Source: Takakia lepidozioides (lineage: Eukaryota; Plantae; Bryophyta). From it: a DNA stretch of 64,000 bases. Shown here in pieces: positions 26,301-62,531 of the stretch. The DNA lies in the NCBI GenBank assembly GCA_030704615.1, contig CM060731.1, forward strand, positions 66,588,001-66,652,000, read 5' to 3'. Each line of letters opens with the position of its first letter. Within the stretch, counting starts at the first letter, position 1. The notes beneath the pieces were generated by a model that saw only the letters and a program-made list of their open reading frames with translations, did no database searches and was not told the origin of the DNA. Made by a program: the position numbers and the translations under genes.

Positions 26301-26377
26301 CCATTTCTCCATCTCCACAAGGCTGAAAGAAAAGTGCTTCCTCCTGGTGCTGCTAATGGAAACATAGTCTGCCACAT
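23324..26377 (-). pseudogene. RAP: Chloroplast RAP-domain/OPR-type RNA-binding protein gene, 3 exons (~26377-24954, 24314-24232, 23391-23324), two frameshifts
   Basis: LSPLNSATALHRVAKHME...AQGISNIAWALSKVGG and RAP domain YTLDLAL..RLALEIDGPTHFTRNTG|TPLGHTVLKRRLLAAAGW..IPLPYQE|WEELRSEGEQM match recalled land-plant RAP; GT-AG introns in consistent phase; +1 T at ~25518-25521 and an apparent -1 at ~23355. True start codon uncertain. Confidence 0.88.
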
Positions 26378-27491
26378 CCCCGTCCTCAATGACCAGCATC
26401 TCTAGTAATTACCTCCAAGCGTCTGCATGAGATGGCTCTACATTTTTTGTGCCACATGGATGATTTCCACCCAGCAGGAAAGGTCCGCTCTTGCTTCACC
26501 ACAACCCATGTAAGGAATTCAACAGTATGTCTAACAAGGATGCAACCGCTGTAGAACTTATGGAGTCTAGCCTCCAGCATTCCCTGGATCACCATCTTCT
26601 GTTAAACTAGAGTCTCACACCTATCTTTCTGGAAATGGGTTTTGATGCAGTTACTCTGAAGGCCAACATTCTTTGAGGATGATGCCTGCTACCAGCGATA
26701 GACCAAAGTATCCTGTGTGGGCAAGGTATGCGCAATAAGGGCCATACTTTGAAAGATCCCATAGGCCGATCAGTTTGTTTAGCAGTGTACATAAGGGAAA
26801 TATGTGATGGCGGACAGCCGGCAGCCAGAGGCGCCAGCCACTCCCACTTTACCCATGGCGGGTCTATGCCCTCCCCCAAATCAGCTATCAGGTACGCGGA
26901 GGCCTCCCACAAAGCTTCCCACCACCTCCTTCTCGGCAGCGGACACGTTCACTTGAGCGTACAGTCTCTTATTATAGCCCATCCCATCAAGCACCACCAT
27001 CTTGTCAACCAGACCCAATGCCTTATGAGTTCGACGACTTTCTTTGTACTTGTGCTCATCGTGCTGCTAAGAACAACATCAATGGCATTCCCAATGCTTT
27101 TGTCTTCGTAGATTCTATAGCCAACTGGCACAGGCTATGTCCATCTTGCATTGGGCTACTCTAGTTGGCATGGCTTCGTCTCATCTTTTTGCTCTTCCCA
27201 ATGTCACACCCATTTCTTTGTCTCATGTCATTCGCGCATTTGGATGGGATGATCATTTGGTTTGATTAGCTTGATATGTTGTATTTTTCATTTCTTTATG
27301 TTAATTCTTCCCTTGCTATGGGAACTTTCCATATTTTGTACAGTTACCTCATGACAGTTTGTAAATAAAAGCTTTGCAGGGTTTCATTATCCAGGTTGTG
27401 GTGGGATGTTTGCCCATATTAGGGGTCTTGCGCGTCATCAGCATATGTTTCATATAGCCCATCAATATTATCAAGACGGTCGTATACCTAC

Positions 27492-31100: not shown

Positions 31101-34025
31101 CAAACATGTCATGATCTTCCGGCTGTAAGACATTTCGGCTTCAACAAAATAATGGAATTGGTATCCAGGGACTATTGGTGGCCGCAGATGTGGAAACCCG
31201 TGAAAGAATTTGTAAAATCTTGTGACACCTATACTAGGGGGAAGGGACCACGACATCGACCTTATGGCCTTCTTCAACCATTCCCCATTCCCAAGGGTCC
31301 ATGGACGTCCTTATCTATGGACTTTATTACGAACCTTCCAATTTCCAAGACCATCGACTCAATCATTGTTATTGTGGATCGTTTTACGAAGATGACACAT
31401 TTCATTCTATGTAATAAGACGGTTACAAGCGAGGAAACTACAAGACTCTTCCTCAATAATATCTACCGCATGCATGGACTCCCGAAGGACATCGTATCTG
31501 ATCGAGGACGCTGTGACTGGTTGTGCGACTGTGTTGGGCTGTGACGGGCTGTGTCGGACTGTGATTGGCTGTGCGACTATGTTGGGCTGTGTCGGGCTGT
31601 GTCGGGCTGTGACTGGCTGTGTGGCTGTGACGGGCTGTGTAACCCCCCCCCCCTAAAGTGCGCTGCTGTCACCCCTAAGGCTCCTGTTGGTCTCAGTCTG
31701 TGCAAAAATTAAGGGTACCCCACAGATCCCGTAAAAGTGCCTAAGTCCCAAACAGTCCTCTAACATCCACTCCCTGTGCTCGCAACGTTGCCCGTTCCAT
31801 TGCCTGCTTCTAAGGATGGCAGGAGTTTGGGGTACATATGTGACATTCCCTCCAATTCTCATACTCCAAACACACGGTCTGCTCCTCTGTGCTGCTCTCT
31901 TCGCTTGCAGCGTTTTTTTCTGTCAATTCCATTGCTATGCATTCTAAGGGCGTGCTCATGCGCCGTCGACGTCAAACACTTCACACTGCTTCATGGCATC
32001 GGAGCATGGCAGAAATTTAGCGAAAGCACAAAATTCGGTATGTTGCACAGTAAGCAAAAGCGTTGCGCATCAGCAAGAGAGCGGAAGACGCTTGTGCAGT
32101 TGTGTTTCGTTGGCTGGGAGAGAGCGGGATCCATAGGAGGGAGGCCGTCCCTCACTTTTTCTGTCTTTCCGCTTGCAGCAAGAGACTCGATGCCTGTGGG
32201 CAAAAGTAGCCGCATCTCTACGGTTATGCTGCTTGGTACCACCTCCTCAAGCTCCCATGTCCTATTGGTTTCAACCTGTGATAATCGTGCATGTCACATT
32301 CACTTCGATTTAGTGTCTGTACTTGTCTGTGCAACCTCATTTCAATGCCATTCGATCATTTGTAACCAATATTTCTCTTATCAGCTGGGCCATGTTTTGG
32401 CGTGCGAGTGGGTGGATCTGAACAAACGTATCTCCAGGCTTGTATTCCACTACCAGATGGCGTCGACCGCTGCAATTTTTCTGCTATCATTGTTGTACGG
32501 TGGCAATCCTGTCAGACGGTGAGGGGTGAATAATTGTAGGAGGCGCACACAGGGCGATCTGTTTCAGACTCGGTGGCGTGATCAATACACAGATTTTGGT
32601 CTACTGAATTTCATGTTCTCTCGGTGCACTTCACTGGCCAGAGACTTTTGTTCTGTAATCTTTTGAAATCATGAGTGAATTGAATATTTTGCATGGTTGT
32701 GCCTATCCATTGAATGCATGCTGTGATTGTCTGCCGCTTCGCAGTATGAGCCTTGGTTTTGATGCTGACCGCGATGCCCAAACACTGTAATGCATGGGCA
32801 CCATTTACACATAACCTCACATACAGAGTGCGGTGCACAGTCGTCTCTCTAGCACGTTCGTTATGTTCAAATTGTTCTCCACACAACCCAAACGCCTTAC
32901 TAATCTGCTTGTTGGGCACGCCATCCAAAACAATTTAAGCGTGGGAGGCAACAACCCCATCATATCAGCAGATTTGAGCATTGTCTGAGAAAAAACAAGG
33001 CGAGTGGCACACGCGAAGAATAAACCCTTAGAATCTGTATACGCCACATTGTAGGATAGTTGTGAGCGTTGATGGGGAATGGACGGCCAAGATCCGACGG
33101 GAGGTTGGGATCAGTCTACCAAAAAGTGAGGGTAGAGCAACATGGGAGGAGGGGATGAACAGGGGAGCAGAGAGCGCCCCGAGGATCAAATGGGAGATGG
33201 CAACTGTTCATATCAAATTTCTGGAGGGGATTATTTCACATATTGGATACTAAGATCAACCTCTCTACAGCTAATTACCTACAGACTGATAGTCAAACCG
33301 AACGCATAAATCAGATTTTGGAGCAATATCTTTGTTGTACGATAAATTATCACCAAGATAATTAGACGGACCTTTTGCCATTAGCTGATTTTGCCTACAA
33401 CAACACTATACATTCTTCGACCAAGCAAACTCCATTTTTCTCCAATTATGGTCATCATCCTCGAGCAAACTCTTTCCACATGAAAATTGTTGGAAGCCCT
33501 GCTGTAGAAAACCTTGCTACTCATCTTGCTACAATTCACAATGAGCTTACATTCCGCCTCGCGGAAGCTCAAAAATAATACAATGAGTATGTAGATCAAC
33601 ATCGCCAACTCCAACCCCAGTTCAAGGTCGGAGATCGTGTGTGGCTTCTTCGACGGGACATAACAAACCTCATGACCATCAAGGAAGTTGGATTATCAAC
33701 GCCTGGGACCATTCAAAATTATTCGACAAATAAATCAGGTCAGTTTTCGGCTTGAACTCTCACGAAGTATGCGCATCCATCCAGTATTTCTTGTTTCATT
33801 ATTGGAGTTGTATCATCCATCGAATATTCCATGGAGAGTCTCCGTACCACCCCCACCAATCGACGTCAATCAGGAAATCGAGTATGAAATCGACGAAGTC
33901 CTAGACTCTCGCATCAAGTATAAACGTCTTGAGTATTTCGTACATTAGAAAGGTTATGACATCAGCGAACGAACGTGGGAACCTTCATTCAACCTCACCA
34001 ATGCATCTGACAAAGTCTAAGAGTC
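28106..34025 (+). pseudogene. Disrupted gag-pol with chromodomain
   Basis: Gag PEKFD..RSRFRGF; protease ALLNSGTS (D>N); [20 protein letters not shown] followed by deletion of the RT core at ~30015; RNase H EADASDFALGAIL; integrase LSMDFIT..IVSDRG|FISNFW..QTERINQ; chromodomain EYEIDEVLDSR..LEYFVH*KGY..RTWEP; many stops. Confidence 0.92.
31510..33204. other. 1.7-kb composite insertion splitting the chromovirus integrase; starts with a ~10-bp GCTGTG-based repeat (31510-31640) and poly-C
   Basis: Integrase stops at IVSDRG (~31509) and resumes at FISNFWRGLF (~33207); no TSD seen. Confidence 0.8.
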
Positions 34026-37834: not shown

Positions 37835-38416
37835 TTAATATTACTATTGGGCAACACTCTCTTTTTCAAGAATAAAATAAAATACCATCCATTGGCATAT
37901 AATGAAGAGGAAAAAAATAAAACCCCTGAGAAGCCATAAGGTAGATTAGACACCCCGGTTGAGGACAAGTCCACCCATTAACCCTTAAGTGTCAATCCAA
38001 CCCGTTTTGGGTTGGTTAGGTTTCTTTTGTTAGAAGTCAGCTCAGATTTAGTTAGCTAGGGTTCTGTTAGGGTTTTTTGACGGCTAGGGATAGTTCTACC
38101 AGAAGGTTCCAGCCACCAGAATTTTCTAGAGAACTCATGTAGGATTTAAGAGAAAGGCTGAGGCAATGCCCAGCACTTCTTCTAGCATTTTGGATGTGCT
38201 ATCCTAGTAGATTGCAGAGAGAGGAGGAGGAGACGTCCAGCATCTACTTTTGTAAGTTTTTTCTTTTGCAGTAAGGAGCATTCTTGTTAGGACTGACACT
38301 TCTTGTTAGTACTAACTCTTTGGTTGGTTTAGGCTGTCAGTTTTTGTACTGCTGCTTGTGCTAGAAGCTATCTGTCAATATCACTAGGAGGTAGAGGACA
38401 GGTCTAGTTTCCAACA

Positions 38417-38430
38417 GGTTATGGGCCCAC
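38417..38430 (+). promoter_or_regulatory. PBS complementary to the anticodon arm of tRNAiMet (half-tRNA priming)
   Basis: GGTTATGGGCCCAC directly after the LTR is the reverse complement of GTGGGCCCATAACC in plant initiator tRNA-Met. Confidence 0.88.
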
Positions 38431-41400
38431 AAGACGTTACAACTACTTGGACAGTTGAGCCACTGGATGGCAACAACTATAAGAGTTGGATCTACACGAT
38501 GCAGCTCCTGCTCTCTTCAAAGAGCCTATGGTCAATAGTGGCTAAAAAGCCTTCAGAGGATAACCTGAAGGAGGAGAGACGGATCCAAAAGAATGAGCTT
38601 GCAATGGCAGCTCTAGTCACAAACATGAGATCAAAACTGGTAGTTTTGATAAGGAATCTTACAACTGCTCATGAGGTCTGGCAGACCTTAAGTGAGGTGT
38701 ATGAGGCAGATGTGATGGGGAAAGCATATGTCCTATGGAAACAGCTCATGGACTTGAGAATGAGAGAAGGTGAGAGTGTAGCCATTCACATTGCCACTGT
38801 TAAAGCCATGTGTCTGGAGATAATTGATGCGGGAGAACCCATGACTGAATCACTTCAGATCATGACCTTGTTTGGCACCTTGCCAAAGAGTTATGACATG
38901 GTGGAAACCGCATTGGCTACTCATGGTAAGAGTAGACTGAGTTGGAAGTATGTCACTTCACAACTCATCATGGAAGAAAGCAAGCTGACTAGGGGTAGCT
39001 CAAGTATGGACAATGCCCTGACGGCTACTTCCATCAAGAAAGATGAAGCATGTTTCCGATGCGGCAAATTTGGGCATTTCCAGAAGGACTGCAAGGTGAA
39101 GATTGACAAGCCCAAGAAGGACAAGTGGAGACCAAGGAAGGGAAGTCTGTACATGCACATGTCGTTGACATGGGCAACGACAGTGAAGTTCACCTGTTTA
39201 TGGCAGATGCAGCTTATACTCGTGATGAAGACTACCTGCTGACTACTGAAGGAGAACACTGTGGAGATGAGTGGTATTTGGACTCTGGAGCTACTAACCA
39301 CATGTGTGGGAGGAATGAGTTGTTTCACAACTTGAAACCCATTCAGCCTAGGAGCGTAAAGATGGGCAACAAGACGTTTTCTGTAAGTACGATGATGGGA
39401 GAAATCCCTGTCAACTTTATCAGAAAAGAGAGTAAGGTTACCCGTTGTACCCTTCAGAAAGTCCTATATGTGCCAGACTTGGCAAAGAATCTGATCTCTG
39501 TTAGTACCTTGGATGAGCTTGGGTATGATGTCATTTTCAGAAACAATGCTTGCAGCATCCAGAAGGGCAACGAGGAACTCTGCTATGGAGTGAAGGAGCA
39601 GAGACTCTACAAGCTTTTGAGTACATCTGGAACTCAGGAGGAGGCCAATGTTGGGGACACAATGGACACTGCACCATTGTGGCATAGAAGGTTGGGTCAC
39701 TTGGGGACACAAGCGATCAAGGATCTTCAAAAGTTGGCGTTGGGACTGAATGTGGACTGGTCACATGAGCTACAGTTCTATGAATGATGTGCTAAAGGGA
39801 AACAACACAAGTCATCAATGCCCAAGGAATCTGCCACAAGAGCCAAGGAGAGGCTGGAGTTGATACACACAGATGTGTGTGGCCCCATGAAGACAACATC
39901 ACTGGGAGGATCTAGGTACTTTGTCACCTTCATTGATGACATGAATAGAAAGACTTTCTTATATCCCTTGAGAGAGAAAGGTCAAGTGCTGCAGGTCTTT
40001 AAGCAATTTGTGCATGAAGTAGAAAACCAGCTGGACCTCAAAGTCAAGGTTCTGAGGAGCGATGGTGGGGGGGAATTCCTAAATCAGGAATTCAAAAACT
40101 ATCTTGCTGAGAAAGGCATAAAGAGCCAAGTAACAGCGAGGGACAGTCCAGCCCAGAATGGAGTGGCAGAGAGATTAAACATAACACTGGTTGAGAAGGC
40201 TAGATGTATGCTACAGACCTCAGGCCTTGGACCAGAGTTTTGGGGAGAGGCGATCAGCACTGCCACCTATCTGAAAAATTTGAGTCCCGTGAGCTTTGAA
40301 AGACATGACTCCAGAGGAGGCGTGGAGTGGGAAGAAGCCAAACCTGAAGCATCTAAGAGTTTTTGGTTGTGCTGCTTATGCATGATACCTGACGAGCAAA
40401 GGAGCAAGTTGGATGCCAAGTCAGAAAGATGTATCTTCATTGGGTATGATCTGGGTTGCAAGGGGTACAAGGTCTACAATCCTAGAACCCAGAGGTCAAT
40501 CAGGAGTAGAGATGTCCTGTTTGATGAGGATAATTTTGGGAAGGAGACAAAGCCCAAGGACCTGTCCGTTCCTGTGATAATCCTTGATGTGGGAGAAAAA
40601 AAAAGGGAACAACCAGTACTAAAGGTTTACACTCGAAGAGAGAAGGTGGCGAAGAAACCAGAAGAGGATGAAGATTCTGAAGATCGGGATCCTATTGACA
40701 AGGATGGGGGGCCTAGAAGGTCAGGAAGGATCAGCAACCCCCCAGAAAGGTTTGGAGCTAATGTGGCAGAAGGACTGACTGGTCTGACTATGGATGACAT
40801 AGGGCAGATGGAAAGTTGTTTCCATGCCCTTGATAATGCAGAGGAGCCAGCCACCCTCAATGACGCTTTGGCAAGGGATGATGCCAATGAGTGGGAGGGA
40901 GCTGTACTAGAGGAGATGAAATCTCAAAAAGAAAACCAGATTTGGGAGCTGGTAACACTGCATGGTGGTAGAAAGGCGGTAGATTGCAAGTGGGTTTTCA
41001 AAGTGAAAAGAGGACCCAACAATGAGATAGTGAAGTACAAGGCCAGACTTGTGGCCAAAGGTTTCACACAGACTGCAGGGCTTGACTACAATGAAACTTT
41101 TGCCCCGGTGGCAAAGTTCACCTCCATCCGATGTTTACTGGCATTGGCAGCGAAGCATGACTGGGAGATAGAACACATGGACGTGAAGACTGCATTCTTG
41201 AATGGGGATCTCCAGGAGGAGATCTACATGAAACAACCAGAAGGCTTCCAAGAAGGTGATAAGGTGTGTCGGCTCAAGAAATCGTTATATGGACTCAAAT
41301 AGGCATCGAGGACATGGTATGAGAAGATCAATAGCTACTTGACAGGCCAAGGTTTTGTAAGGAGTACAGCTGATCAGAGCATTTACTACATGACATCAGG

Positions 41401-42397
41401 TGTCATGATAATAGCACTCTATGTGGATGACCTGCTACTGATCAGCGACAACAAGGATACCATGCGCAGGCAGAAGCATGATTTGAGTGAAACCTTTGAG
41501 ATGGTTGATCTTGGAGCCGTGAACTACCTACTTGGAATTCAGATTCTGAGGGACAGGAAGGCGAGAACTATAAAGTTGAGCCAAGAGAGGTATGTCAGGA
41601 ATGTTGTTGCGAAGTTTGGTATGCAGGACTGCAAACCAGCACCAACACCATTGGAAACCGGCTGCAAGCTGAGTAAGGAAATGGAGCCAAAATCTCCAAG
41701 TGAGATTGAGGAAATGGCTAAGGTTCCATATCAGCAAGCCATGGGATCTCTGATGTATGCAATGATTGGCACCAGGCCAGACATTGCCTATGCAGTGGGA
41801 ATGCTTAGTAAGTTCATGCACAACCCAGGACCTCAGCATTGGAAAGCACTCAAGAAGGTGATTAGATATTTGAAAGGGACTGCGGATACATGTCTAACTT
41901 ACAACAAGCAAGACACTGGAGCATCACTAGAAGGATACAATGATGCAGATTGGGCAGGAGACACAGATGAGAGGAGATCCATATCTGCCTACTGCTTTGT
42001 AATGAGTGGAGGTGCTGTGAGCTGGAGCAGCAAAAGACAGCAGACCACTGCTCTATCCTCAACTGAGTCAGAGTATATGGCTCTGACTCATGCAGCTAAA
42101 GAAGCCATTTGGATTCGAAGGCTTCTTGGTGAACTTGGCTTCAGTCAAGAACAGCCAACGAAAGTGCATGCTGATAACAGGAGCAGCATTGAGCTGAGCA
42201 AGAATCCTGTTCATCACGCCCGGACCAAGCACATAGATATCAAACATCATTTCATTAGAGAAATGATTGGTTTGGAGATTGAGTTGGTTTACTGTAGGAC
42301 TGAGGACATGGCAGCTGATGCACTCACAAAGGCTCTATCCAAAGAAAAGCATTCTAGATGCATGGAACTGATTGGGTTAAGCCTCAATCCTCGCTGA
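38421..42397 (+). pseudogene. Copia gag-pol (gag, CCHC, PR, INT, RT, RNase H) with stops and frameshifts
   Basis: CFRCGKFGHFQKDC; WYLDSGATNHM; LWHRRLGH; IHTDVCGP, LRSDGGGEF, QNGVAER; YKARLVAKG, LYVDDLL; DADWAG, RTKHIDIKHHF. Frameshift ~39120, stops at 39785 and 41300, compensating frameshifts ~40290-40380. Confidence 0.96.
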
Positions 42398-44129
42398 GTG
42401 GGAGTGTTAGAAGTCAGCTCAGATTTAGTTAGCTAGGGTTCTGTTAGGGTTTTTTGACGGCTAGGGATAGTTCTACCAAAAGGTTCCAGCCACCAGAAGT
42501 TTCTAGAGAACTCATGTAGGATTTAAGAGAAAGGCTGAGGCAATGCCCAGCACTTCTTCTAGCATTTTGGATGTGCTATCCTAGTAGATTGCAGAGAGAG
42601 GAGGATGAGAAGTCCAGCATCTACTTTTGTAAGTTTTTTCTTTTGCAGTAAGGAGCATTCTTGTTAGGACTGACACTTCTTGTTAGTACTAACTCTTTGG
42701 TTGGTTTAGGCTGTCAGTTTTTGTACTGCTGCTTGTGCTAGAAGCTATCTGTCAATATCACTAGGAGGTAGAGGACAAGTCTAGTTTCCAACATCTTTAA
42801 CCATCCAATCCTTACTGGGATTAACTTTGATTTGAGTCAAATTAGGCTCATTAGGTAGGAAAAAAAAACTCTTACACACAATGGCATTGGCCAATCTTCA
42901 AAAAAGAAATATATATATGAAGTAAGACCCCCCAATTTGGGGCTAACTCAGTTTTTTTGACACATTTTTGCTGAATCATCTTGCCCAAGCTGCTTACATG
43001 GCAACCATGGTCAGGTTACGGAAAGGTATCCACCCTAAGAACGGCGGGCCCACAGACATCCCAATGCCCCATGAATGTATAGCAGCCACAGGTTTCACCA
43101 CATGAGTGGCAAAACGGTCTCAAAACCCGCTAGGTACAAGGGCTAGAGTAGGAAATATGAGAGGGCTGCAGGCCAAAATATAGGTTGGGCTGGGAATTAC
43201 CGGGCAGTGCCCGAAAATAGCCTAAAACATTTCCCAATTAGATTGAATTTTTTTCTACAACAACATTTGCATGCAATGATGACATGGACCAGAGCGATTG
43301 AGAATTGGACGAAAGATGTGTCCTACGTAATTTTTGAAGCTCAAATTTTGGTCTGCCCGCTTCAAATTGGGTTTTGAGACCCCCCAATTTGTGAGTACAA
43401 AGCAGCCCACACGAAAACAAGTCGGAAAAAAACGAAAATTTCAGGGAAGGTGTGGCATCAAGTGAGGTACACAATTCCCAAGACTCTCATATGAGGTCGC
43501 CGAAAAAAAACACTCCCGGGATACCATGAAGACCCAATTGGGGTGACAGTACAAATGGATAAAACTGTCCCCAAGAGAAAAAACAAAATCTCATAGAACT
43601 AGATATATTAACAAAAAGAAATCCAACTATTCTAGTGAAGAAGGTCAAACAATATGAAAGATGATGGGACAAAGTGGGACCAGGTGTTGGGAGAATCCAA
43701 GACATTGGGTTTGTTGACATTGCCATAGTGACTCAAGATCAGACCCTCAAAAACAACATCTCTCATAGTGAGGTCTAAATCATCTACCAAAAGCATGGGA
43801 CGTTCACGCTTGACCATTCCTGCCATAACGAAGAGCTTGGAAGAGAGAGCACAAAGAAAGAGCACAAAGAGAGAGCGAGTGAGATGAGAGACTTCCAGAA
43901 ATGAAATGAGTTGTGAGAGAAGAGAGACAGCAGCCTACCTTTATATTCTTGAGAGGGGATGCTCGTTTGCTTGGTTGCTGCTCCTGCGGATGCTTGCAAG
44001 TTGATAGAGCTTTGAATGTGCATCAATACATGGAAGACAAACCGCCGGAAGAGTTGAAAGCAGGGCTGGTGGTGACAGCATGTGCAGAAGCAATTTCAAA
44101 CTTGAGCATAAGTGCGCCGCACAGGAAAC

Positions 44130-49709: not shown

Positions 49710-50392
49710 TCATGTACGAAGGTAGGGCAACACTGCTGCATCTTCACACACATCATTAGCACCACCAAGCTCCTCACTGATCTCCGGATCGTCATGCACA
49801 CCATCTACATGACCAATCCTATGGGATGGACCAACTTGAGCTCCCATTGCTAGGATGCACAAAAAGGCAGATGCCTGCCATCCTGGCACCATCTCCTCAT
49901 CCGTCTCACCGTGCCACCGAGCTCCAGTATCATTATGCTCGCTCATGCATGGATTACAACTCAACCCATCTGCATCCCAATTGATTATACCGGCTCGATG
50001 CACCACCTGGAAGTCGTACTCTTGAAGCATAAGTGCCCACCGTGCAAGCTTCCCTGTAAGCTTGTCTGACTCCATCAACCACTTCAATGGTTGGTGATCC
50101 GTGACAAAGTTGAAGAGGTTGTCATAGAGGTAGCATCTGAAATGTGCCACTGCCCATACCGCAACTAGACACTCCCCTTCATATGAGCTATACTTCGTCT
50201 CAGCATCATTGTTCGAGCGGCTGGCATAAGCTACTACGAACTCTCTTCCCTCGTCATCAACCTGTGTGAGCACTGCTCCAATTCACAGTATACTCCAATC
50301 TGTATGTAGCTGGAAAGGCCGCCCCCGAATAGGCCGCCTCAGAATAGGTGCAGAAGTCAATTGAGCCTTGAGTTCCTCAAAGGCTTCATCAT
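49710..50392 (-). pseudogene. Ty3/gypsy RNase H and linker
   Basis: AFEELK..LTSAPIL..FQLHTDWS..IGAVLTQ; VAYASRS; YSSYEGECL; VTDHQPLKWL; LARWALMLQEYDF; DADGLS. Confidence 0.93.
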
Positions 50393-51376
50393 TGCACCAT
50401 CATCAGGTGTAACCTTTCCACCCCCCCCCCCCCCCCCTGGTTTTCGCATAATTTGTCAAATGGTGTTTTGTTTTGCATCCTGGAAAAATCATCAATAACG
50501 GTCAAAAAATATTTTGCACCTCCATGAGATTCAGTAGATATAAGTCCGCATAGATCTGTATGGGATAAATGCACAGATGGGTGGACCAAAAACTGTGTAA
50601 CAATGTTTCCCCCATCATTTGATTATAGGTCTCCAAAGCCTCCATACCATGTCCTGGCGCAATTCCAGCATTCTTACTATTGATATGGACCTCTTTGCCC
50701 ATCTCCAGAGCTGCCAAGCTGGTACAAGCATTGAGAATGCAGACAAGTGTGACCTTGTCAGGGGTTACCTCTTCATTTATCGATGGTGCATAGACCTCCA
50801 AAGCCTTCTTACCACACCCATAGTGGGCATATTCTAAGCCGCTGCTCATTGTATCAACATGGATTACCCACAAGTAAATCTGCCCAGGCCCACCTCTCCA
50901 ATAGCCTTCCACTGGAGAGGTGTGCTCAGTTAAACCAGATCTTCGAAGTGTAGGGTTGGTGCTCGCTCCCACGATTGTTGCAGTGAAAGTAGTTATAATG
51001 GCAGGTGGTAGCACCAACCATTGCATCAGTGTCGTTGCATCAGGCGCATTCAGAGTGGGGTGATTGGGAGATGAATCCCACCTTAACGAATCTGGCTCTG
51101 GGAGTAGATTGTAGAGCATAGTGGACTTGGAAATCACCTCCCTCCAGTTTATTGTCGTGTGGTCCTTAGGTGCAAACACACTAGAACTCAGATAATGCAG
51201 CCGAGGCTGCTGCTTCTGTTGAGGAAATATGAGTGGTTCAACTAAAGGAACTATGCTAAAGCTTTCATGGGGTTGACAAACTACTATCGACGGTTTGTCA
51301 AGGGATTTAGCAGCATTGCAAAGGCTCTTACCAAGTTGACCAAGGTGGATTAGGAGTGGCAGTGGGAGGAGGAGCC
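50393..51376. other. Rearranged block: inverted RT segment (51261-51375, +) plus foreign PPR and copia-integrase fragments
   Basis: Plus strand AFMGLTNYYRRFVKGFSSIAKALTKLTKVD*EWQWEEE is the piece missing between DVSRVR and DEAFEELK on the minus strand; minus-strand TPDKVTLVCILNACTSLAALEMGKEVH (PPR) and HTDLCG...GGAKYFLTVIDDFSR (copia INT). Confidence 0.85.
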
Positions 51377-51377
51377 A

Positions 51378-52200
51378 CGAACTCTGCTAACATCTATGGG
51401 GCGTGGAATGCGTGCAATGGCCTCCACCTTTGTCTTTTGAACACCCAATCCTCCAGGGTATATCATGTGGCCCAGCTACTCAATCTGGTTGTGGAAGAAC
51501 TTGCACTTCCTAGGGTGCAATTTCAACCCATGCGCTCTCAAGCGCTCAAACACCATCTGAAGGTGTCTCTCATGCTCCTCAACCGTAGCACTAAAGACGA
51601 CGATGTAATCAATGTAACACCGGGCAAAGTCTAGCCCTGCAAGAATCCTATCCATAATCCTCTGAAACTCTGCAGAAGCATTCTTCAACCCAAACGGTAG
51701 GAACCGCCATTGGTACAAGCAATCCTTCACATGTTGGTCAATCCCCCAGAATGCCGTCTTTTGCTTGTCAGCCTCTTTGATTGGCAACTGGTGGTAACCG
51801 GATCGCAAGTCCAATGTGCTAAACACCTTTGCATGCCCAATGGCATCAAAGATCTCCTCTGGAGTTGGCATGGCATATCTATCGGACTTAGTATGACGAT
51901 TCACAGGACGGTAGTCCCCACAAATCCTTCTTTATGTCCAATTGTCATAGATATCCTTTTTAACCGGCATTACCGTTGCCGAGGCATACTCCTCGCCTGA
52001 CAACTCCACCAATCCAGCTTCGAACAGCTCTATAGTCCGTGACTGGATCAATGACCTTTCCATGTCACTATACCGGTAGGGCTTTCGCAAAATTGGCAGG
52101 TCACTTGCCAAATCAATACGAATCTCCTGGCCCTTCAAACTCCCCAAATCCTTCAAACCGAAGGCAAAGCAATTTCTATAACCCTTTAGAAATCGCTGGA
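51378..52200 (-). pseudogene. Ty3/gypsy reverse transcriptase
   Basis: RKPYR..; RICGDYRPVN; FSTLDLRSGYHQ; KTAFW; LPFGLKNA; CYIDYIVVFS (YIDD>YIDY); KCKFF; *LGH. Confidence 0.95.
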
Positions 52201-52669
52201 TCCTCCGTCTCTCTCCTCCGGTGTCTGTAGGTCCAACATCTGGTTCCTAGTTGTCCTTAGTGACTGCAACCTTGGGTACACCAGGCTTGGAGGTAAGAGA
52301 CGCATCCTTTGGTTGCTAGATAGCAACCTCTTGGGCCTTATCCACCCACCCTGACTGTGGCGTAGCCTCCACTTGCTTTGCCATAGCCACCTTGAGAACA
52401 TCCTCTAGGGAAGAAACATTCTCAACCTCTTCAAAAACATTGGTCACCTTGGCCTCCAACTGATCATCAGTGTATGGCTCTCCTCACTCCTCATATTGCT
52501 GCTTGAGATATCCAAGGACTCTCTCTTTCCGCATCTCACCCCACATCTGTCATGGATGTTTGCACCTCATGATCATGTACTCGCTCCTACTCACTGCCTC
52601 AACCGTCCCGGTTCGCAGAGGGGATGCAATACCAAATGGGAATGCAGAAGTAGCCACCAATGTCTGCAA

Positions 52670-53710
52670 CCTCTGTTTCTCAGCCATGCACAAGCCAATG
52701 ACCCATGTCAAGCAATTTAGATCCATTGCTTGACCCAACACTTGTCAGCGTGATGCCTCTGACACATCTGACACAGCTGTAGTGCCCGTGGCAAATCCCA
52801 TTGCCCACTCTCGCTCATCCGCATTGGGCTCTACCAATTGCTGTAGCACACTGTCCCAAATCAACGCAGGACCATTGTCTCGAAAAGCATGAGACGAGGG
52901 AAAGCTCATGAGCGTAGGCAAGGCTGCACGTGGCTGCCCCACTCGATTGACCACTGCTAGAGGTGGATGGTCATCATGGCACACCCTTTGTGGTTGCCTC
53001 CCTTGGTCCAAAATGCCCTGATTGGGTTCTGTCCGCCATAGGCCGCTCCACCCGCTTTTCCTTTTGAAGCACCGGGTGCCGCCTTGATTGCTGAAGGTCC
53101 GCCGTTGAATGGAATCGTATGCTCTCTTGAGCAGCTCTGGTGGTGCAAGATTGGTCCACCATAATCGAGGTCGATGCGCGCGTGATCCCACCGCTACTGC
53201 GTCCAATAGCACCGCCGATCCAATCCAAGACCGCACTTGATGCACACTGGCCATAACCCTGGCCCGAGAGTCCCCCATAAGAGGAACATTCTCCAAGATA
53301 TAGGCTAGAGGTTGCATTTGCCTCGTCTATAGGTCACGCAACACTCTCAACATCTCCCAAAATAAATGCGATCGTGCATCATGCAAGCCATTCCCATGAC
53401 CTGCGGGAGAGTGTCTTTGGCAAGGCCATCTAGCTATCACCAAGTCAATGGCACCATGCCGGTCCAAATCATCCACCCCCAGCAAGGTAATGTCTGCTGG
53501 CAAGGCTTTTTGATACCCTTGAATTGCTAAGAGAGGCAACAACTCAGGATACCGGTGTGTGAGCAAGGCAATGTGACACATAGAAATACGCCGAGTTATC
53601 TCATCCTTCTCCACATACAAATACTTGCGTACTTTAATCCCTGCTTGCAACACTCCTGCAAGCCCAGTGCTCATGCCTCCAAACAGGTCTAGCAAACAAA
53701 TCCCTGAGTC
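52670..53710 (-). pseudogene. DNMT3-like cytosine-C5 methyltransferase domain within pol
   Basis: Motif I LLDLFGG; II YVEKD; III ADIT; IV DLVIARWPCQ (PC at 53425-53420); VI YILENV (53293-53285); VIII SRAHRPRLWWTNL; IX EREWAMGF..GTT; X R*QVLGQAMD. Two internal stops. Confidence 0.93.
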
Positions 53711-55791
53711 AGGTGGTTGTCAGGTAATGGGCAATGTGTCTAAAGGAGCTAACTGAGGAGGTCCAGGTGATGTCACTGAACTCCCCTCACTCACCAATGG
53801 ATAGGCCTCCTGCCATGCTTGGTGCACACACTCGCCTGCTATTCGATGCAAATTCCCAACTGTACTCCACAGTGGAATATGAACAGGCACATAAGGAAGC
53901 AAATCAGCCTTGTATGCCAATCGTTTGTCCTCATCAGATGGTGGCCTATCATCTGCATGGCTATTACCCTCCAAGAGCTCACCACCCCTGAGAATGCAGC
54001 CAATGTGGGCATCATGTTCCTATGATCCACCGCTATGTCATGGTTTTTGTCATGGTTATCTAGAATTACCTATTTCTAGTTAACTAGGACATTTTAGATA
54101 TTTATATTTATATTTTGTGTGTTGGGACTTCATTTGGTCTCACATGCCAAGTGAGGTGTCGAGCCTCACTTGGGACATGGGGATAGGTTTTCTCCTTGTG
54201 AGGATGGAGGAGGCTCATCTTCTTGTAGTAGCCTCCACCCTTGCAACACCTTGCAAGCCTTGTGAGATACCTGAGCTTTTCCTAGCTCTCTTACTCCTTG
54301 GTGTACACCAACACAAGTGCAAAACTACACTCCGCACTCACAAGCATAATGTCATCTTCTTGTAGTGATAATGAAAGTAAACATAATGGAAAACCCTCCA
54401 CTCACGAATCCACTCAATCACATAAACTAAGTCAAGCCAAGGGCACCCTTGCTAAGGGAATCCACCCTACAAAGCCCTCACCACACTCCCTCTCAATATC
54501 TAGAGCTATGGAGGTGAGTGTGTTTGCATTGCATCAAGGAGGTGGAGAGCTCAAGGAGAGAGCTCAAGAAGAGAGCTCTTGAGTTACAAGACTTTGCAAG
54601 TATTGCAGGGAGAAAGTCTTGTGTGTGTGGAAGCAAAAGGTTTGAAAGTTTGAGAAGAAGGAGCGTCATCTCTTGTATCTCAAGTGTTGTGACAACCATT
54701 TGCCAAGGAAGTGAATTCTATGGTGAAAAGAATGCATTGAGGGTTTGTAGAAGCATTATTGTGCACCAAGGGTTTGAGAGCTTAGAAAAGAGCTCTTGCA
54801 TCACAAGAGAAGCGTCTTGTGTGTGGAGAAGATAGACACTAGGGTTTTAAGAGCAAGTTCTAATTGTTCATGGTGTGAAAGAGAAGCCAAAGAGCAGCAC
54901 ATGTTTGGGTTAGAAACACCATAGAAGAAGTACAACAAGGATAGCTTGAGGGGCATTGAGTAGCTCAAGAGAAGCTAAGAAGTGGTTGTTTTATCCATGG
55001 TGAAATGAAGCCAAGTGGGGTTTCATTTGGTTGACAAACAAGTAAGCTAAGGTGCTAGAAGGGAGTGCTTCTGCTAGTCTATGAGTTCTTGGATTGCTCT
55101 TGGCGAAGCAAGTGGTTGACCAAGCAAGTGGCACATGTGTGGAGCATGCTTTCCAAGTGCGGCTTCCAACTTCAAGCTTGAGGAGAGCTAGAAGGTGAAG
55201 GGAACAAGTCATTCTTTTGTGTATAAGGTGATGCTTATGTGGAGCATGTTTTCAGCCCATTGAGGTTTTTATTTTCAAGCCTTGGAGAGCAAGAAGAAAT
55301 GAAAAGGGCTGGTTTACACTTAGGTGAAGGAAAAGCACTTGTAGAGCACATGTTTGAGTTGGGGTTTCAACCTTAAGCTTGAGGAGAGCACGACTCTTGA
55401 GCTAGCAAATGAAGGGACTTGAATCTTCCTCTTTACATGAGATGGAGATGTATTGATGCTTGGAGAAGCAACACAGAAGCCAAGAATGGAGCATGTGTGT
55501 GGATGGCCAAAGGAGAGCACATGAATGAGTGCAAGACTTGGTTGCTTGTCAAATGAGGTAAAAAGCTTGATTCTTGAGCTCCAAAGAGAAGTGAAGCTTG
55601 TTGTGTGGCAAATGCATTGCTAGGTGAGATGGAATCAAGCTTGGTTGTGGCTTGAGGTGAAGAAGATAAAGGTATATCTCATAAAAATCATGGATGCTTG
55701 AGGAGAGCAAGCATGAAGCTCAAGGAAGCCCAAACCCTAGCTTGGAATGCACAAACCCTAGCATGAGATGCACATGAAACCTTAGGTGCAT

Positions 55792-55919
55792 GGAACAGTC
55801 ACCAAAGTGTGGGAACGGTCATCGTAGTCTGGGAACCGTCATTGTAGTCTAGGAACCGTCACCGTAGTCTGGGAACGGTCACCAAGGTGTGGGAACGGTC
55901 ACTATAGGCTGGGAACATA
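55792..55919. repeat. 20-bp tandem repeat (~6.5 copies) in the LTR
   Basis: Units like GGAACGGTCACCAAAGTGTG / GGAACCGTCATTGTAGTCTA. Confidence 0.9.
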
Positions 55920-56089
55920 GTGACATATAAAAACAATATAGGGCTTTTGGAGGATTTTCAAGGGCCTTTTGGAGGATTGTTTGGGGGATCTTTGGGGTCC
56001 TTTGGGGAGCTTTTGGAAGACATTCTGAGGAGTTTTTGTAAGGCATTTTGAAGAGCTCTTGAAGAGGTATTTGGATGACTATTTGGAAG

Positions 56090-56410
56090 CTTATTTGCGG
56101 TCCTTGAAGGCCAAGTTTTGGCAAGTTTTTGGAGCCTTGGAAGGCTATGTGGAGGACCATTTGGGGTCTTTGAAGGCCAAGTTTTGGCAAGTTTTTGGAG
56201 TCTTTGAAAGGCTATGTGGAGGACCATTTGGGGTCTTTGAAGACCAATATTTGGCAAGTTTTTGGAACCTTTGGAAGGCTGTTTGGAGGGTTGTTTGGGG
56301 TCCTTGGAGGCCGATATTTGGCGAGCTTGAGGAGTCTTTGGCGACTTGTTAAAGGACTATTTGGGGTCCTTGAGGGCCGAGATTTGGCAGGCTCTTGGGG
56401 CCTTGGTGTA
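56090..56410. repeat. ~65-bp degenerate tandem repeat in the LTR
   Basis: TTTGGGGTC.TTGAAGGCCAAGTTTTGGCAAGTTTTTGGAG recurs about 5 times. Confidence 0.85.
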
Positions 56411-57113
56411 CTATTTGGAGTACTATTGTCCAAGCTTTGGGAGTCTTAATGAGATTGTTTGGGAGACATCTTGAGGGATCTTAGAGAGTTATTTGAGAGA
56501 TCCTTGAAAGTCTTGTCTATTGCTTAAGCAAGAGAGTGTGGAGATAGGGTAGTGGGATGAGAGCATGCTGTGATAGGAATTGCTTTAGTCTCTCTTCCTT
56601 GTAGTATTCCACCCTCTCTGTAGGCCAAAACCTTTCCGTAGGTGGAGGCAAGAGTCAGTCCGGGTTTGGGCTGGGGTGTCTTGCAGAAGCGACACTATGG
56701 AGTGTTTTTGGTGTGGGGGAGTTACTGTTTTGATTTCCTTGTGCTTGGATCCCCTCCATACATGCATGCTTGACTGTGCGTCATGTTAATTTTGTGTGGG
56801 CGTTTGTTTTCATAGGAGGTTGGTCCGGATTTGATCACCGATCAATCCTAGAGCGTACTGTCGATGGTGAGGCTGGGGTGATGACCAGTCAGACCATCAT
56901 GTTCTCTTATGGTGAGGTTGGGTTGATGACCAGCAGACCATAGGAGTGCTTGCAGTGGATGCAGGTGCAGGTGCAGGTACAGGTCTACATTAGAAACCTA
57001 TTATTCATGCTTGAACCAGTAGCCGCAACAGGTTCTCTACCCGGTTACCTTGTAGAAAGTGGGGATTAGAGACAGGTTGACAACCGGTTGGATTGTGAGT
57101 TTTCATCACGGAG

Positions 57114-58670
57114 GTGCCACCAGTTGCTGAGGGGAGTGTCGGTACGGGCACCAACGATACTAGTGGGTACACAAGACGAGGTGTGCAGTTTAGGCCACCT
57201 TCACCTTCAGTGTCTTCTGATGAAGGTTTAGACTGGGAGTCGGGAGGATTCTCGCCGAGGGTGCAAGTCATTTCTGTGCCATTATTGTGGGACACGATGG
57301 AGGAGATGTATGGAGCTACCAAGGGGCCACGTAGGTACTCTAGAGCTGTGGGCACCATCGAGTTTGATGACTTCATACAAGAGTTTGACAGTTGGTGTGA
57401 ATCCACAACTGTTTACGCCTTTTATGGCGTGGAAGGGGCTATTCCAGCACCTTGAGGGGCCGCCCATGGATGATTACCATGATTTTAGGCGGGGACACGC
57501 GGTGGAGATTGAGGAGTGGCGATAGTATTGGTCACCTAACTATGTCTCCATCACTAGAGGCACAAGGGCAGTGGCGACACCAGTAGCTATACAAACATCT
57601 CCAACTGCAAGCACTAGTAGTGGGACAAGTGGTACAGGAGCTGGGAAATCCACTCAAGCTCCTGCTGCAGCACCAGCACCCGTGCCTGCCTTTAACCCAG
57701 TTGTGGAGTTCTTCGAGGAGTTGAGGAGAAACTACCAAGGGATAAGGACATAGAAGTTGCGGAGCTTGCAAGAGTTCCAATGAAGGTCTACTGAGAGTTT
57801 GAGGGAGGCTTACATCCGCATGAGGCACTTGATAAACGTAACCCAATGGGTTACAGAATCTCAGGCAGTCCAGTTCTGGTATGGGATCCTGGACAAGGAG
57901 CTGAGGAGAAGGGTGTGGGATGCAACTCTCCTACAAGTGGACCAACCCACCTTAGCAACTGTGTTTTTGCTGGTAGAGCGGATAGAGCTCAATATGGTGG
58001 AAGAGCGAGTGGTCATGGTAGGGTTTGGCAAGGAGACACAATGAAGCGGGGCTCCTAGCCAACAACAACCACTATCCCAACGTGTTCAAGGCAACAAGGA
58101 GGCTCAGGTGAAGCCGAGGGAATGACAGAGAGGATCTCAGATGCAGAGGTTTTTTCCTTCATTCTCAGGCCAACAACAGTCGGGTGTGACTTGTTGGGAT
58201 TGTGGAGGACCCCATGTCAAGAAGGATTGCCCGAAGAGAGGCAAAGGGTCGGCACAGGCACAGCCTACACAACTACAGTATGGGCATTGTGGAAAATATG
58301 GGCATGAGGAGGCCCATTGTTATGGCTTGCATCCTGAGCTACGGCCAGGCCAGTTCCAAGGGAACAATGGTGGCCGAAGACGAGGCAATGTAGTCCCAAG
58401 AGGTAGAGGAGGCAGAGGTCGGGGTGGAGGTCGTAACCAAAATCAAGGAGCATAGGATCAGGGTCAAGATCATGACCAAGGCATGGTGGATAGACTTGCC
58501 CAGCTAGAGCAACGTCTTGCTGCCATGGCCACTACTCATGTTGTGCTAGCTCCAAGACTTGAGGTTCAAGCCCCACCTGTACAACCTCTTATGCCTAGGG
58601 AAGACCAGATTGGTATGGGCTTCATGTGTGGAGCCGCACTTGCAGGGCCATTGCATGTATTGGACTCTGC
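57114..58670 (+). pseudogene. Retrotransposon gag with two zinc knuckles and an RGG tract
   Basis: EFFEELRRNYQG...Q*RSTESLREAYIRMR...QFWYGILDKELRRRV; CWDCGGPHVKKDC; YGHCGKYGHEEAHC; RGRGGRGRGGGR; several stops; cut at ~58673. Confidence 0.82.
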
Positions 58671-59279: not shown

Positions 59280-61674
59280 CTACCCATGTGTTGTATCCCG
59301 CTGCAAAAGAGTATCGACCTCGTTGAAACTCATGGTGGCCTGGTGAATGAAGTTGTCACGTTTGGGATCGCAAACCATCCTCTTCAAAAATATGAAATAC
59401 AAATGTTTGCAGGGTATGAATTTACCTCTCTTGCCCAAACTGGTTGATAGCATATTCACAAAATCAGGACATGTGCAATTGGGGAAATTGGAAACCGTGA
59501 TGTCGTAGGTCCTGTCATGAACAGCAGATGTGGAAGTGATGATTGTGAATACCCGACCATATCCTGGATCGGGTACTTCCGTGGTGCTTCCAACACGAGC
59601 TTGGAGCATTCTTGCGGACTCCACTTTGCCAAAGTGTTCAGCGGTTGGAGGGAAACGCCGAACGAGCTTTCCATCTCGTTTGGTTGGCCACAAGTCAGGA
59701 TTTGCCGGGGGGACCCGGGAGGACGCAGAAGTAGTAGCACATGTATGGAGTTAGGGTTGTCTCGCAAGGGAAAAACCTGCCTCCTCCAGCATTTCAATCT
59801 CCTGAAAGCTGAGATGTGTTCCCACCTTCACGGACCAAACGGTTGGAGGAGATGGCTTCATCACTATGGAAGGACGCACACATCTGGCACAATCATCTGC
59901 GCAGAACCAGAACTTGTGGTTCTTGGCTTCTGGTTGACCGTATGGACGCATCAAGCCCGTGAAAGTCGGAGCAGGAGTTCGGGCACCACCTCTAGATATA
60001 GATGAAGTGCACTTCTCAAAATTAGTTATCGCTGTACATTTCACACGAGACCCTACACTTGTGCGTTCTATGTGCCAAACGTGGTCGGGGCATGCGGACT
60101 CAAGCACATCAAGGGGGTTGTTTCTCTCCTGCACCATTTCAGTGGCACTGTTTGATGCTGGAGCTTGCCGTTGTGTTGGAGGTTCCTCCACAATGGAGGT
60201 TCCAGACATGGAGCTGTTATGCAAGGGAACACGAGGCTTCGAGAAGTTATCACGGTTGCCCTGTGGGAATCTGAATCCGAACCAGGTGGAGTGTTCAATT
60301 TCCTCTTACAGGAGCCGAATCTCTCCTCCCCTCCAAGATGTGGAACTCTAGAAACAAGTGGCGTTCCCTGGGCATACATGCTCACCGCCCGTGCTATCTT
60401 GATTGGATCCCCAGATCTGTTTGCAACACGCAACATCAACTCCCATTTGTCCGGACCCTTGCCACCAACCCCACCTCGTAAGAAATCACGGTATCGGGTT
60501 TGTTGTTGCAAGGCACGTATCAAATCATCTGTTGTTGCCACATACAAATCCCGACCTCGTTTCCCAGACTGCTGCAACCATGCGTTGTGCACAGTTTCTG
60601 CCAAATTGCAAGATGGCATGTCCGCCATTTCCTCAATGGACATGTTCTGCAAAGTGCAGAACCACACTTCAAAACAGTGAACAGAAAACAACATAAAGAA
60701 AGCGAGGACACAATAAAATGGAAAGCAAATGTATGAAAAATCAATAAATATAAGCCTCGTACCAATGGCATGGTTGCTCCCCACTGTCTATACCGGAAGT
60801 GCCAAAACGCCAGCCAATCTTCCAATGCTCTCATACTCTCAAGTGATGCAGCTCCACAAGAGAACCACCAGGCACGAATTGTCTGGAACAAAGTGTCCGC
60901 CTCCTTCATTGTTCTAGCATCTTTGTACTCTTTGCACAATTTACGGTGCTGAGTCTGCATCTCTGGTTTGATGTCCGACTTTGTATGTTTTTCCAGAGAT
61001 TGTGTCCAATGGAATAGACATGTACGCTCTCTTCCTCGCATTGGCACTTTTGGGTCGCCCGATCCGAAGACAATACGAACAACATTGAAATTAGTCTCCG
61101 GCAAGAACTTCACAGGCACCTGCTTCAAAGATTCCCAATCAATTCCCCGTAACTCCCTTTTGAATCCAGCCATTCCTCCCATCGCCCGCAATTTTGGAAT
61201 GACATTACAAATCTTTTCTTCATCAGCTTCTCCAACCATAGTAGGAAGGACTGGATTTGGAATTTCACTTATGTCATCATCGGAAGAATCCGAAAGCTCA
61301 ACGATTGGAGTGGAGGACGTCTGTTCTTTTTTCACCACCACCTCCCTCTTGTCTTCAACGACCGAAGCAGCAGTCCCGGGTGTCACATATGACCCAAGAG
61401 ACTTTCGCCGAGGCTCTCCAAGTACTCTGTATCAACCAGGACGTACTCTCCACTGGCTGATATGAGCCGTCTCATCACGGTTTTGGAAAGAGTATTTCAA
61501 CAACTTCCCTTTAAGATCGTACACCTCTTTCTCCAAAAAGATGGAGCCATTCTGCAGCTGAAAACGGGTAGCCAAGACATGTTCCAGAACAATTGCAAAT
61601 CCATTGTCAAGGACTTCCTGGGAGAACGGCACTGGTTTGTCGTCAGAGAAGAACTCCGCTTCAGAGGAAGCCAT
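59280..61674 (-). pseudogene. MULE-type transposase with C-terminal SWIM zinc finger; intron 60762-60647; internal deletion, stops, frameshift
   Basis: CxxH motif CLFHWTQS; WLAFWHFRYRQWG; CNLAETVH (catalytic-E region); SWIM YDITVSNFPNCTCPDF...PCKHLYFIF; GT-AG intron joins PL|NMS in frame; first two catalytic Asp not found. Confidence 0.75.
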
Positions 61675-62531
61675 CTTCCTTCCTCGCGTACATTTGTACC
61701 TTGCTATCGCAGATCTAGTGTAAATCGGTTTTACTGATGTCTCCAGAACACAGTTGAAGAATGAGCAGAGAATATGGCGGAGGAAGCTCAGACAACGACT
61801 GTGCATATTATGTTATTCTTTCCAGATATGCAGCCGTCCATTTTAATTACTTTTCTTGTGGGCCCAATGGTCAGAGTATCCCTAGGAGCAGTGTCGGCAG
61901 CTGTTAAACCGTTAACCAGAACCTCATCAATAAACCCAATAACAAAGCCGACTTCCTGGAAGCATGCCACAGGATCTGAGGATGGGATTGCAGATTAAGT
62001 AAATGTATCTTTATACTACTACCAATGATCATGCGCACCTGAAAAGTTCCAAATGTGAAACGAATGTGGGGTTTGGCTAACAAGGATGACCGTGTATGAT
62101 ATTCCAAGATTTGTCATCAAACTCTCGTTCATTTACATTTATTTGTGTAAGACTGTGCGCCAAGATTTCTGGGATTCGCTGTTATTTTTAAATATTGAAA
62201 CCGTTCTAATAAAGAACACGCCGTTTATTTTGGGCGACACACGTCAGACATCCATAACTGAATACGAACAGCTGTACACCAATTGCTGGCATGTGCACTA
62301 ATAAGGGAACGACTATGTGTAACGGTCACGCGAGAGGGAATCCAATGCTTCTAGAGACACGCAAGAACGCAGGCAATCCCGCAAGAAATCGGGAGTCACT
62401 GCGTTTTTCTACTTTTCGCGCTTAGAGAGAGAGTGGTAGTCAAGGTGGAGAGGGTTCATTCTACAATACGAAAGAGAAGAAAGTCTCTTTATTTTACTTC
62501 CCTTAGAGAGAGACGCAGAGCAAGAGAGCAA

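Follow-up and report, generated by a model that had tools for sequence, protein, structure and literature searches.

We describe a degraded Ty3/gypsy retrotransposon in a 64,000-nucleotide stretch of the Takakia lepidozioides genome (contig CM060731.1, positions 66,588,001 to 66,652,000), hereafter the window, to whose coordinates all positions refer. On its minus strand, the element carries a DNMT3-like cytosine methyltransferase (DNMT) upstream of the reverse transcriptase (RT), and a single stop codon between the two is conserved across the lineage in a context known for translational readthrough. These results suggest that the family is organized as gag, protease, and DNMT, a leaky conserved stop, and then RT, RNase H, integrase, and a PHD finger, with the methylase made at the level of Gag and likely methylating new complementary DNA (cDNA) in the particle; we give this reading a probability of about two in three. 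The finding matters for the family-wide stop, by which the methylase is placed on the Gag side, and for the existence of relatives in a model plant; the window copy itself is only a relic.

Related loci were drawn from a metagenome set, in which 80 of 314 confirmed loci were analysed; 43 fell into lineage A, the lineage of the window, and 36 into lineage B. The linker site was covered in 30 lineage A loci, the other 13 being truncated at contig ends or carrying a rearranged linker, and among the 30 at least three pairs represent the same copy twice. A stop occupied the site in 29 of them (22 TAG and 7 TAA), and the lone sense variant, in L041, was TAC, a tyrosine codon. CAR-YY followed the site in all 30, and the full UAG-CARYYA signal was detected in the window, L032, L047, L062, and L065. 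The signal lay 30-37 codons upstream of the RT anchor. In the window it reads TAG CAA CCA, which is the only TAG-CARYYA match among the 842 TAG triplets of the minus strand. Synonymous sites were saturated (synonymous divergence, pS, 0.75-0.86) among the sub-lineages sharing the signal, namely the window, L062, and the Sphagnum-type loci, so labelled from their near-identity to the Sphagnum fallax protein P0028. The stop was kept in 18 of 18 distinct indel-free Sphagnum-type linkers, the decay-prone codons within DNMT reaching a maximum of 3/11. No conserved in-frame ATG was found near the stop, the first Met occurring at +85 in the window, +117 in L062 and L065, and +5 and +3 elsewhere, and many database relatives end 57-117 residues past DNMT.

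The intact-looking locus L062 consists of a 1369-codon open reading frame (ORF) with protease and DNMT, one TAG, and a 1047-codon ORF in the same frame, with zero other stops; RT, RNase H, integrase, and a PHD finger were identified in the second ORF by Pfam. The initial annotation of the window had placed the methylase within Pol and had taken every stop for decay. Because the stop is fixed between DNMT and RT, DNMT sits in lineage A at the end of Gag-protease and not in Pol proper; the Pol assignment holds in lineage B and in some algal relatives. Similarly, decay accounts for the other window stops, but not for the stop at 52318-52316, which is family-wide.

UAG CAR YYA is described as the type I readthrough motif (PMC11166343). 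In plant reporters, 11-32% readthrough was measured for contexts of this type; it required the C directly 3′ of the stop, and tyrosine was inserted (PMC2754532). The same arrangement, a single UAG followed by CAR-YY(A), occurs in the type I readthrough viruses, including tobacco mosaic virus (replicase), beet necrotic yellow vein virus, and some ilarviruses (PMC2754532, PMC11166343); there, as in the UAG readthrough of murine leukemia virus gag-pol (PMC5009743), the upstream product is made in large excess over the downstream one. In contrast to these viral cases, the stop of the family follows protease and an extra enzyme instead of gag and is known here from sequence alone. Readthrough candidates are also mentioned among rice gypsy elements, none of them with DNMT in the available text. 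On this comparison, it is likely that the conserved stop is read through at a low rate: most ribosomes would halt after Gag-protease-DNMT, and a minority would continue into RT-RNase H-integrase-PHD. No consistent signal of a stimulatory RNA structure 3′ of the stop was obtained for six sequences compared with mononucleotide shuffles (z +0.5 to -2.8). Three gag-protease-DNMT proteins, P0286 (Klebsormidium nitens GAQ93235.1, marked partial), P0263, and P0033, end 11-13 residues past DNMT, which hints that the algal branch may also recode at that point. In lineage B, a stop recurs just before RT in seven linkers and is not fixed; a stop between protease and DNMT, suggested by L072, was rejected for this lineage, most of 34 copies being open there.

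To place these results in the window, positions 54019-51386 of the minus strand were translated, which gave 878 codons with nine stops and zero frameshifts. The initial annotation had described such a single interrupted frame, and this stood, except that the frame starting exactly at 53990 is closed and the one described sits one base over, at 53989. When stops were scanned as X, Pfam matched PF00145 DNA_methylase (E 9e-10, 38.9 bits against a cut-off of 22) and, in the same frame, RVT_1 (E 6e-28); the methyltransferase motifs were in linear, unpermuted order and were followed by the linker and the gypsy RT, as first described. The DNMT3-like rather than DRM character of the domain was likewise borne out: among sequences of the PDB it matched DNMT3A at E 2e-10 versus 2e-3 for DRM and 1e-2 for HhaI, and its predicted model (mean predicted local distance difference test score, pLDDT, 78) matched only DNMT3A, DNMT3B, and DNMT3C among the fold matches listed (best E 3e-17, TM-score over the target 0.78). 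RT followed by RNase H in the window, together with the full domain order in L062, confirmed a Ty3/gypsy element. The features of the locus, in the direction of the element, were as follows:

53723..54035, minus strand: spacer between protease and DNMT, with the element cut off at ~54035 (tblastn of Marchantia P0004, residues 786 on, and of L062 ORF1).
52685..53713, minus strand: DNMT3-like C5 cytosine methyltransferase domain with three decay stops (PF00145; DNMT3A sequence and fold matches).
53030..53101, minus strand: in-frame insertion within DNMT, lacking in relatives (joints and loose ends of contigs from sequencing run X1 at 53016-53121).
52319..52684, minus strand: C-terminal tail of the Gag-protease-DNMT ORF with two decay stops (linker translation and comparison with related loci).
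52310..52318, minus strand: conserved in-frame stop TAG CAA CCA in type I readthrough context (stop codon at 52318-52316).
51386..52309, minus strand: gypsy reverse transcriptase in the same frame, with three decay stops and a broken catalytic motif (RVT_1).
51258..51376, plus strand: inverted piece of ~120 bp from the RT-RNase H junction (tblastn on the opposite strand).
50400..51257, no strand assigned: foreign insert with a copia-like fragment, splitting pol (tblastx to the copia element of the window, E 6e-9).
49716..50393, minus strand: RNase H and the stretch beyond it (RT_RNaseH, E 6e-33, Pfam).
54036..58536, plus strand: truncated second copy from this family, oriented head-to-head with the first (terminal TGTCATG at 54036, tandem repeats, gag).

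The window DNMT was 55-65% identical to most Marchantia and Calypogeia relatives; pLDDT fell below 50 at model residues 208-231, matching the insertion at 53030..53101. The window RT was 60% identical to L062 ORF2, and the RNase H stretch was 62% identical to residues 353-569 of that ORF. The inversion at 51258-51376, whose opposite-strand contig joints in run X1 lie at 51262/51376, is private to the window copy. Protease and integrase of the family were not found by tblastn anywhere in the 64-kb window, and the copy has lost its integrase, 3′ repeats, and ends. As had been claimed, the copy is dead: its RT catalytic motif is broken, its motif IV residue occurs in only 2 of 156 family sequences, and it is a rearranged relic. 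Loose ends of run X1 contigs at 54035/54036 mark the boundary with the second copy, where TGTCATG (plus strand) is the terminal heptamer of related loci; gag at 57297-58536 (plus strand) was 45% identical to P0004, and 80% over its first 35 residues (tblastn). We infer that 54036 to gag is one continuous second copy lying head-to-head with the first, both truncated. Its 5′ region bears tandem arrays of 20-nt and 66-67-nt units at 55772-55931 and 56060-56392, and the 5′ end of L062 likewise bears short repeated units. CpG was depleted alike in the element (0.48) and in the whole window (0.54), which is uninformative.

Run X1 contributed 11,542 contigs placed on 3.2 kb of the window element. Their summed depth, which is a sign of a high-copy repeat and gives no copy number, was 3e4-7e5 over DNMT, linker, and RT and dropped from ~4e5 to 65 at 51258, the edge of the foreign insert. 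Because this depth is far above that of the adjacent insert, the window element comes from a high-copy family. Among the 40 of 449 differences listed, two other window stops and the broken RT motif deviated from 97-100% of the placed depth, as expected of private damage.

A search with the DNMT region matched 34 proteins, of which 18 were named Marchantia polymorpha, two Calypogeia fissa, and two Sphagnum; no fern or seed-plant name occurred among the 34. In the representative protein library, 189 clusters were matched at E up to 1e-30 and the best 150 were scanned for domains. A further retroelement domain was present in 95 of these representatives: DNMT lay between protease and RT in 21, after RNase H or directly before integrase in 73, and unclearly in one. 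The first order included K. nitens and three Closterium, and the second Scenedesmus (20 representatives were named). Judged by their sequences, relatives of the element are thus present in Marchantia, Calypogeia, Sphagnum, and Closterium. DNMT was followed by RT in 55 of the 80 metagenome loci, so the join recurs in other copies and is no chance capture. Matches in IMG/VR (27 loci) were all weak and partial methylase matches (28-42%, E 8e-11 to 8e-4), and those in the ESM Atlas were all below 0.8 and serve only as leads.

The two domain orders corresponded to two DNMT clades, with FastTree support of 0.99 for 156 sequences and IQ-TREE SH-aLRT/ultrafast bootstrap (UFBoot) values of 89/67 for 37 of them; the RT tree also grouped the first order (support 0.96), and the window grouped with lineage A in both the DNMT and RT trees. 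The K. nitens element appeared to fall into the same DNMT clade as the window (0.99; 89/67), in trees unrooted by any host DNMT3. The catalytic Cys was kept in 155 of 156 sequences and the motif VI Glu in all 156, and the proposed dN/dS comparison gave ~0.12 and ~0.09 for DNMT in two pairs, indicating, from these substitution patterns, that the family DNMT is under purifying selection even though the window copy is dead. In motif IV, the catalytic Cys is preceded by Pro in 73 of the 156 sequences and by Glu in another 71, a family-specific change of the catalytic loop. According to Pfam, the domain is without PWWP/ADD or DUF3444 targeting modules, and the relatives scanned gave no DAM or chromodomain match.

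Two further architectures were observed. The order RT-RNase H-DNMT-integrase-PHD occurred as single long ORFs with intact motifs in P0037-P0042, P0248, and L078:143-4516; the full order was present in 30 of the best 150 representatives, the one named case being the green alga Scenedesmus. We found no literature report of RNase H-DNMT-integrase-PHD with intact motifs, although supplements and subscription papers may hold one. Lineage B (L067-L107), a sister lineage, is a second DNMT-gypsy family from the same metagenome set, 32-44% alike in DNMT, with protease-DNMT-RT open; its member L074 consists of two tandem partial copies that are 82% alike over 4 kb.

The ends of the relatives differed from those of textbook Ty3/gypsy elements, in that two standard long terminal repeats (LTRs) with a tRNA primer site were not seen; no primer site was recognized by eye after repeat A. 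Complete split repeats of the order A…B-A-B were found in four loci (L071, L072, L080, and L102), and lineage A showed a B-A-B 3′ end in L036 and L050 and A…A in L031 and L055; the window retains only the terminal heptamer. A G-rich polypurine tract precedes B, the relatives end in TG…CA, and in 12 loci CAYGACA-NN-TGTCRYG forms the inner B|A joint after PHD. Integrase ends that are still unprocessed have the form CA-NN-TG. The order A…B-A-B would be expected if a two-LTR circle (LTR = B+A) were opened at one inner joint, and these sequences together suggest a circular intermediate. The same repeat order was noted for KnitGypsy-Dnmt3 of K. nitens by de Mendoza et al. 2018 (PMC5890265).

If Pol came from transcripts spliced to remove the stop, or from initiation at its own start codon, DNMT would still be on the Gag side; we consider either route unlikely. 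T-rich bases ahead of TAG in Sphagnum-type copies resemble a splice acceptor, and the NCBI gene models P0008, P0010, P0021, and P0028 join DNMT to RT and skip the linker, but the stretch skipped differs in each model and the conserved bases are those 3′ of the stop, as for readthrough. Ogre (Tat) elements also have a stop between GAG-PROT and RT-RNase H-integrase, but they splice a ~274-bp spacer and have standard LTRs (PMC6317226), whereas in the family a single codon interrupts a linker that otherwise stays open in one frame, and DNMT and PHD are present. An ATG two codons past the stop in Sphagnum-type copies could provide the separate start; the window, L062, and L065 are without it. It is improbable that DNMT simply belongs to Pol in frame, with all nine window stops due to decay. 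Such an arrangement would fit the single frame without frameshift, the fully open lineage B linkers of L067, L068, L071-L073, L076, L093, and L096, and single ORFs such as P0234 and P0334; however, the window belongs to lineage A, where the stop is kept in nearly every locus. As for a host DNMT3 fragment landing by chance in a gypsy relic, or an assembly artefact, the heavily rearranged locus, with its inversion, insert, and second copy, would be in keeping with either, but the recurrent DNMT-RT order, the further retroelement domains of the representatives, the alike high depth over DNMT, linker, and RT, and the lack of an intron leave almost no room for them.

The enzyme may also be real with a main target other than cDNA, acting on host chromatin or existing copies (self-limitation) or serving as a binding module. 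We regard this alternative, which does not exclude the cDNA reading, as rather unlikely, though the most probable of those considered. At Gag level, the amount of enzyme would greatly exceed the needs of one cDNA, and DNMT has moved between two polyprotein positions and need not adjoin RT. RNA binding and a host-beneficial slowing are listed as options by de Mendoza et al. (PMC5890265), and the Klebsormidium domain showed no activity in yeast in a test called inconclusive there, a result that counts against our reading as well. Against the alternative, hardly any variation occurs at the catalytic residues. Fusion to Gag is expected to bring a domain into the particle along with RNA and cDNA. 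In addition, the domain is without the targeting modules of host DNMT3 (PMC6453930).

Several further observations weigh against methylase loading by a leaky stop and integration from a circle. In 26 of the 30 covering loci, all Sphagnum-type, the stop is followed by CAR-YY-C/T, which agrees with five of six positions, full CARYYA being present in only four. The ATG past the stop is found in the Sphagnum-type loci, some of which duplicate one copy across replicate data sets. In the window frame, CAACCA also follows the decay stop of codon 100, so that chance can produce this context at an individual site. The 36 lineage B loci have no fixed stop, and Gag-level DNMT is therefore not required by all relatives. 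Finally, full A…B-A-B was found in lineage B only, lineage A showing parts, and a target-site duplication was clear in one of three checkable loci (L072).

In the proposed mechanism, the methylase would be packaged with Gag and freed by the protease. Whether the cDNA is its substrate, with new copies arriving already methylated, we judge to be evenly balanced; such copies would either pass for old chromatin or remain silent. The repeat structure somewhat favors a circle, opened at the internal B|A junction, as the form that integrates. The L062 PHD finger matched those of CHD4, PHF12, PHF21A, ATXR5, and KDM5. Several of these fingers are readers of unmethylated H3K4. As a guess, the PHD finger may read histone H3 tails and thereby steer integration.

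Among known systems, KnitGypsy-Dnmt3 is the closest: its Ty3/gypsy polyprotein contains a DNMT3-like domain free of introns and of permutation, it shows purifying selection, and it has DIRS-like split repeats, which occur here in relatives (PMC5890265), and K. nitens GAQ93235.1 shares the gag-protease-DNMT order. PMC5890265, however, puts DNMT in the RT ORF and describes an acquisition of the K. nitens lineage, whereas our family occurs in land plants at high copy, with a conserved readthrough-context stop between DNMT and RT in place of a single ORF. The family is nevertheless of the KnitGypsy-Dnmt3 kind and probably of common origin with it. The available text of PMC5890265 makes no mention of a PHD finger or an att-like repeat junction, and later papers name KnitGypsy-Dnmt3 merely as a streptophyte case (PMC12344493; bioRxiv 10.64898/2026.05.21.726589). 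EpiLTRs, SymbioDIRS-Dnmt3, and SymbioLINE-Dnmt are also retrotransposons with cytosine methyltransferases (bioRxiv 10.64898/2026.05.21.726589; PMC5890265), and de novo CG methylation was demonstrated for SymbioDIRS-Dnmt3 (PMC5890265). Unlike the family, the EpiLTR DNMT is sister to DNMT4 and accompanied by DAM and a chromodomain (bioRxiv 10.64898/2026.05.21.726589), and the Symbiodinium elements are DIRS or LINE (PMC5890265). The two L062 ORFs differ from DIRS/Ngaro in having rve and H2C2 and no tyrosine recombinase by Pfam. Host plant DNMT3 shares the DNMT3-type catalytic domain and fold, but has DUF3444 and introns, and DRM is permuted (PMC6453930). The available text of bioRxiv 10.64898/2026.05.21.726589 had no match for Marchantia, Sphagnum, bryophyte, or readthrough, and that of the plant LTR survey PMC6317226 had none for methyltransferase or Marchantia. 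No literature report of the land-plant copies or the conserved stop was found, though supplements ("streptophytes") and subscription papers may hold them.

Other features were observed in the window. A near-complete Ty1/copia element at 38028-42704 has 300-bp LTRs that are 99% identical and long gag-pol ORFs. A second, unrelated Ty3/gypsy relic at 28957-31544 contains protease, RT, RNase H, and integrase fragments with ~30% identity to the DNMT family. A chloroplast RAP-domain gene lies at 24928-26401 (minus strand) in two overlapping frames, the change near 25520 reflecting a pseudogene, an intron, or a sequence error; the top matches of both its ORFs were in Physcomitrium (57% and 51%), narrowly ahead of seed plants, which points weakly to a moss-like host. 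Fragmented ORFs at 59280-61812 (minus strand), with a weak SWIM zinc-finger match (E 0.006, below cut-off), are perhaps a Mutator-like relic.

How retrotransposon DNMTs act has been an open question since 2018, an active enzyme having been shown for dinoflagellate DIRS only and the gypsy case being one alga; the Marchantia polymorpha relatives bring this question to a model plant with methylation mutants. Because of the conserved stop, annotations either end genes after DNMT or bridge to RT with inconsistent introns. The stop also yields a dosage prediction, with DNMT at the level of Gag and RT far lower, and lineage B, which lacks the stop, offers a natural control. The split repeats and the CA-NN-TG junction point to a DDE integrase acting on a circle, unlike in textbook LTR elements. 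Tentatively, we envisage an old green-lineage Ty3/gypsy clade, from algae to mosses and liverworts, with one inherited DNMT3, whose land-plant branch may use leaky-stop loading of the methylase at capsid stoichiometry, methylation of the circle before integration, att opening, and PHD aiming. If true, high-copy transposons would arrive epigenetically pre-marked, and the family may contribute unnoticed to de novo methylation in bryophytes.

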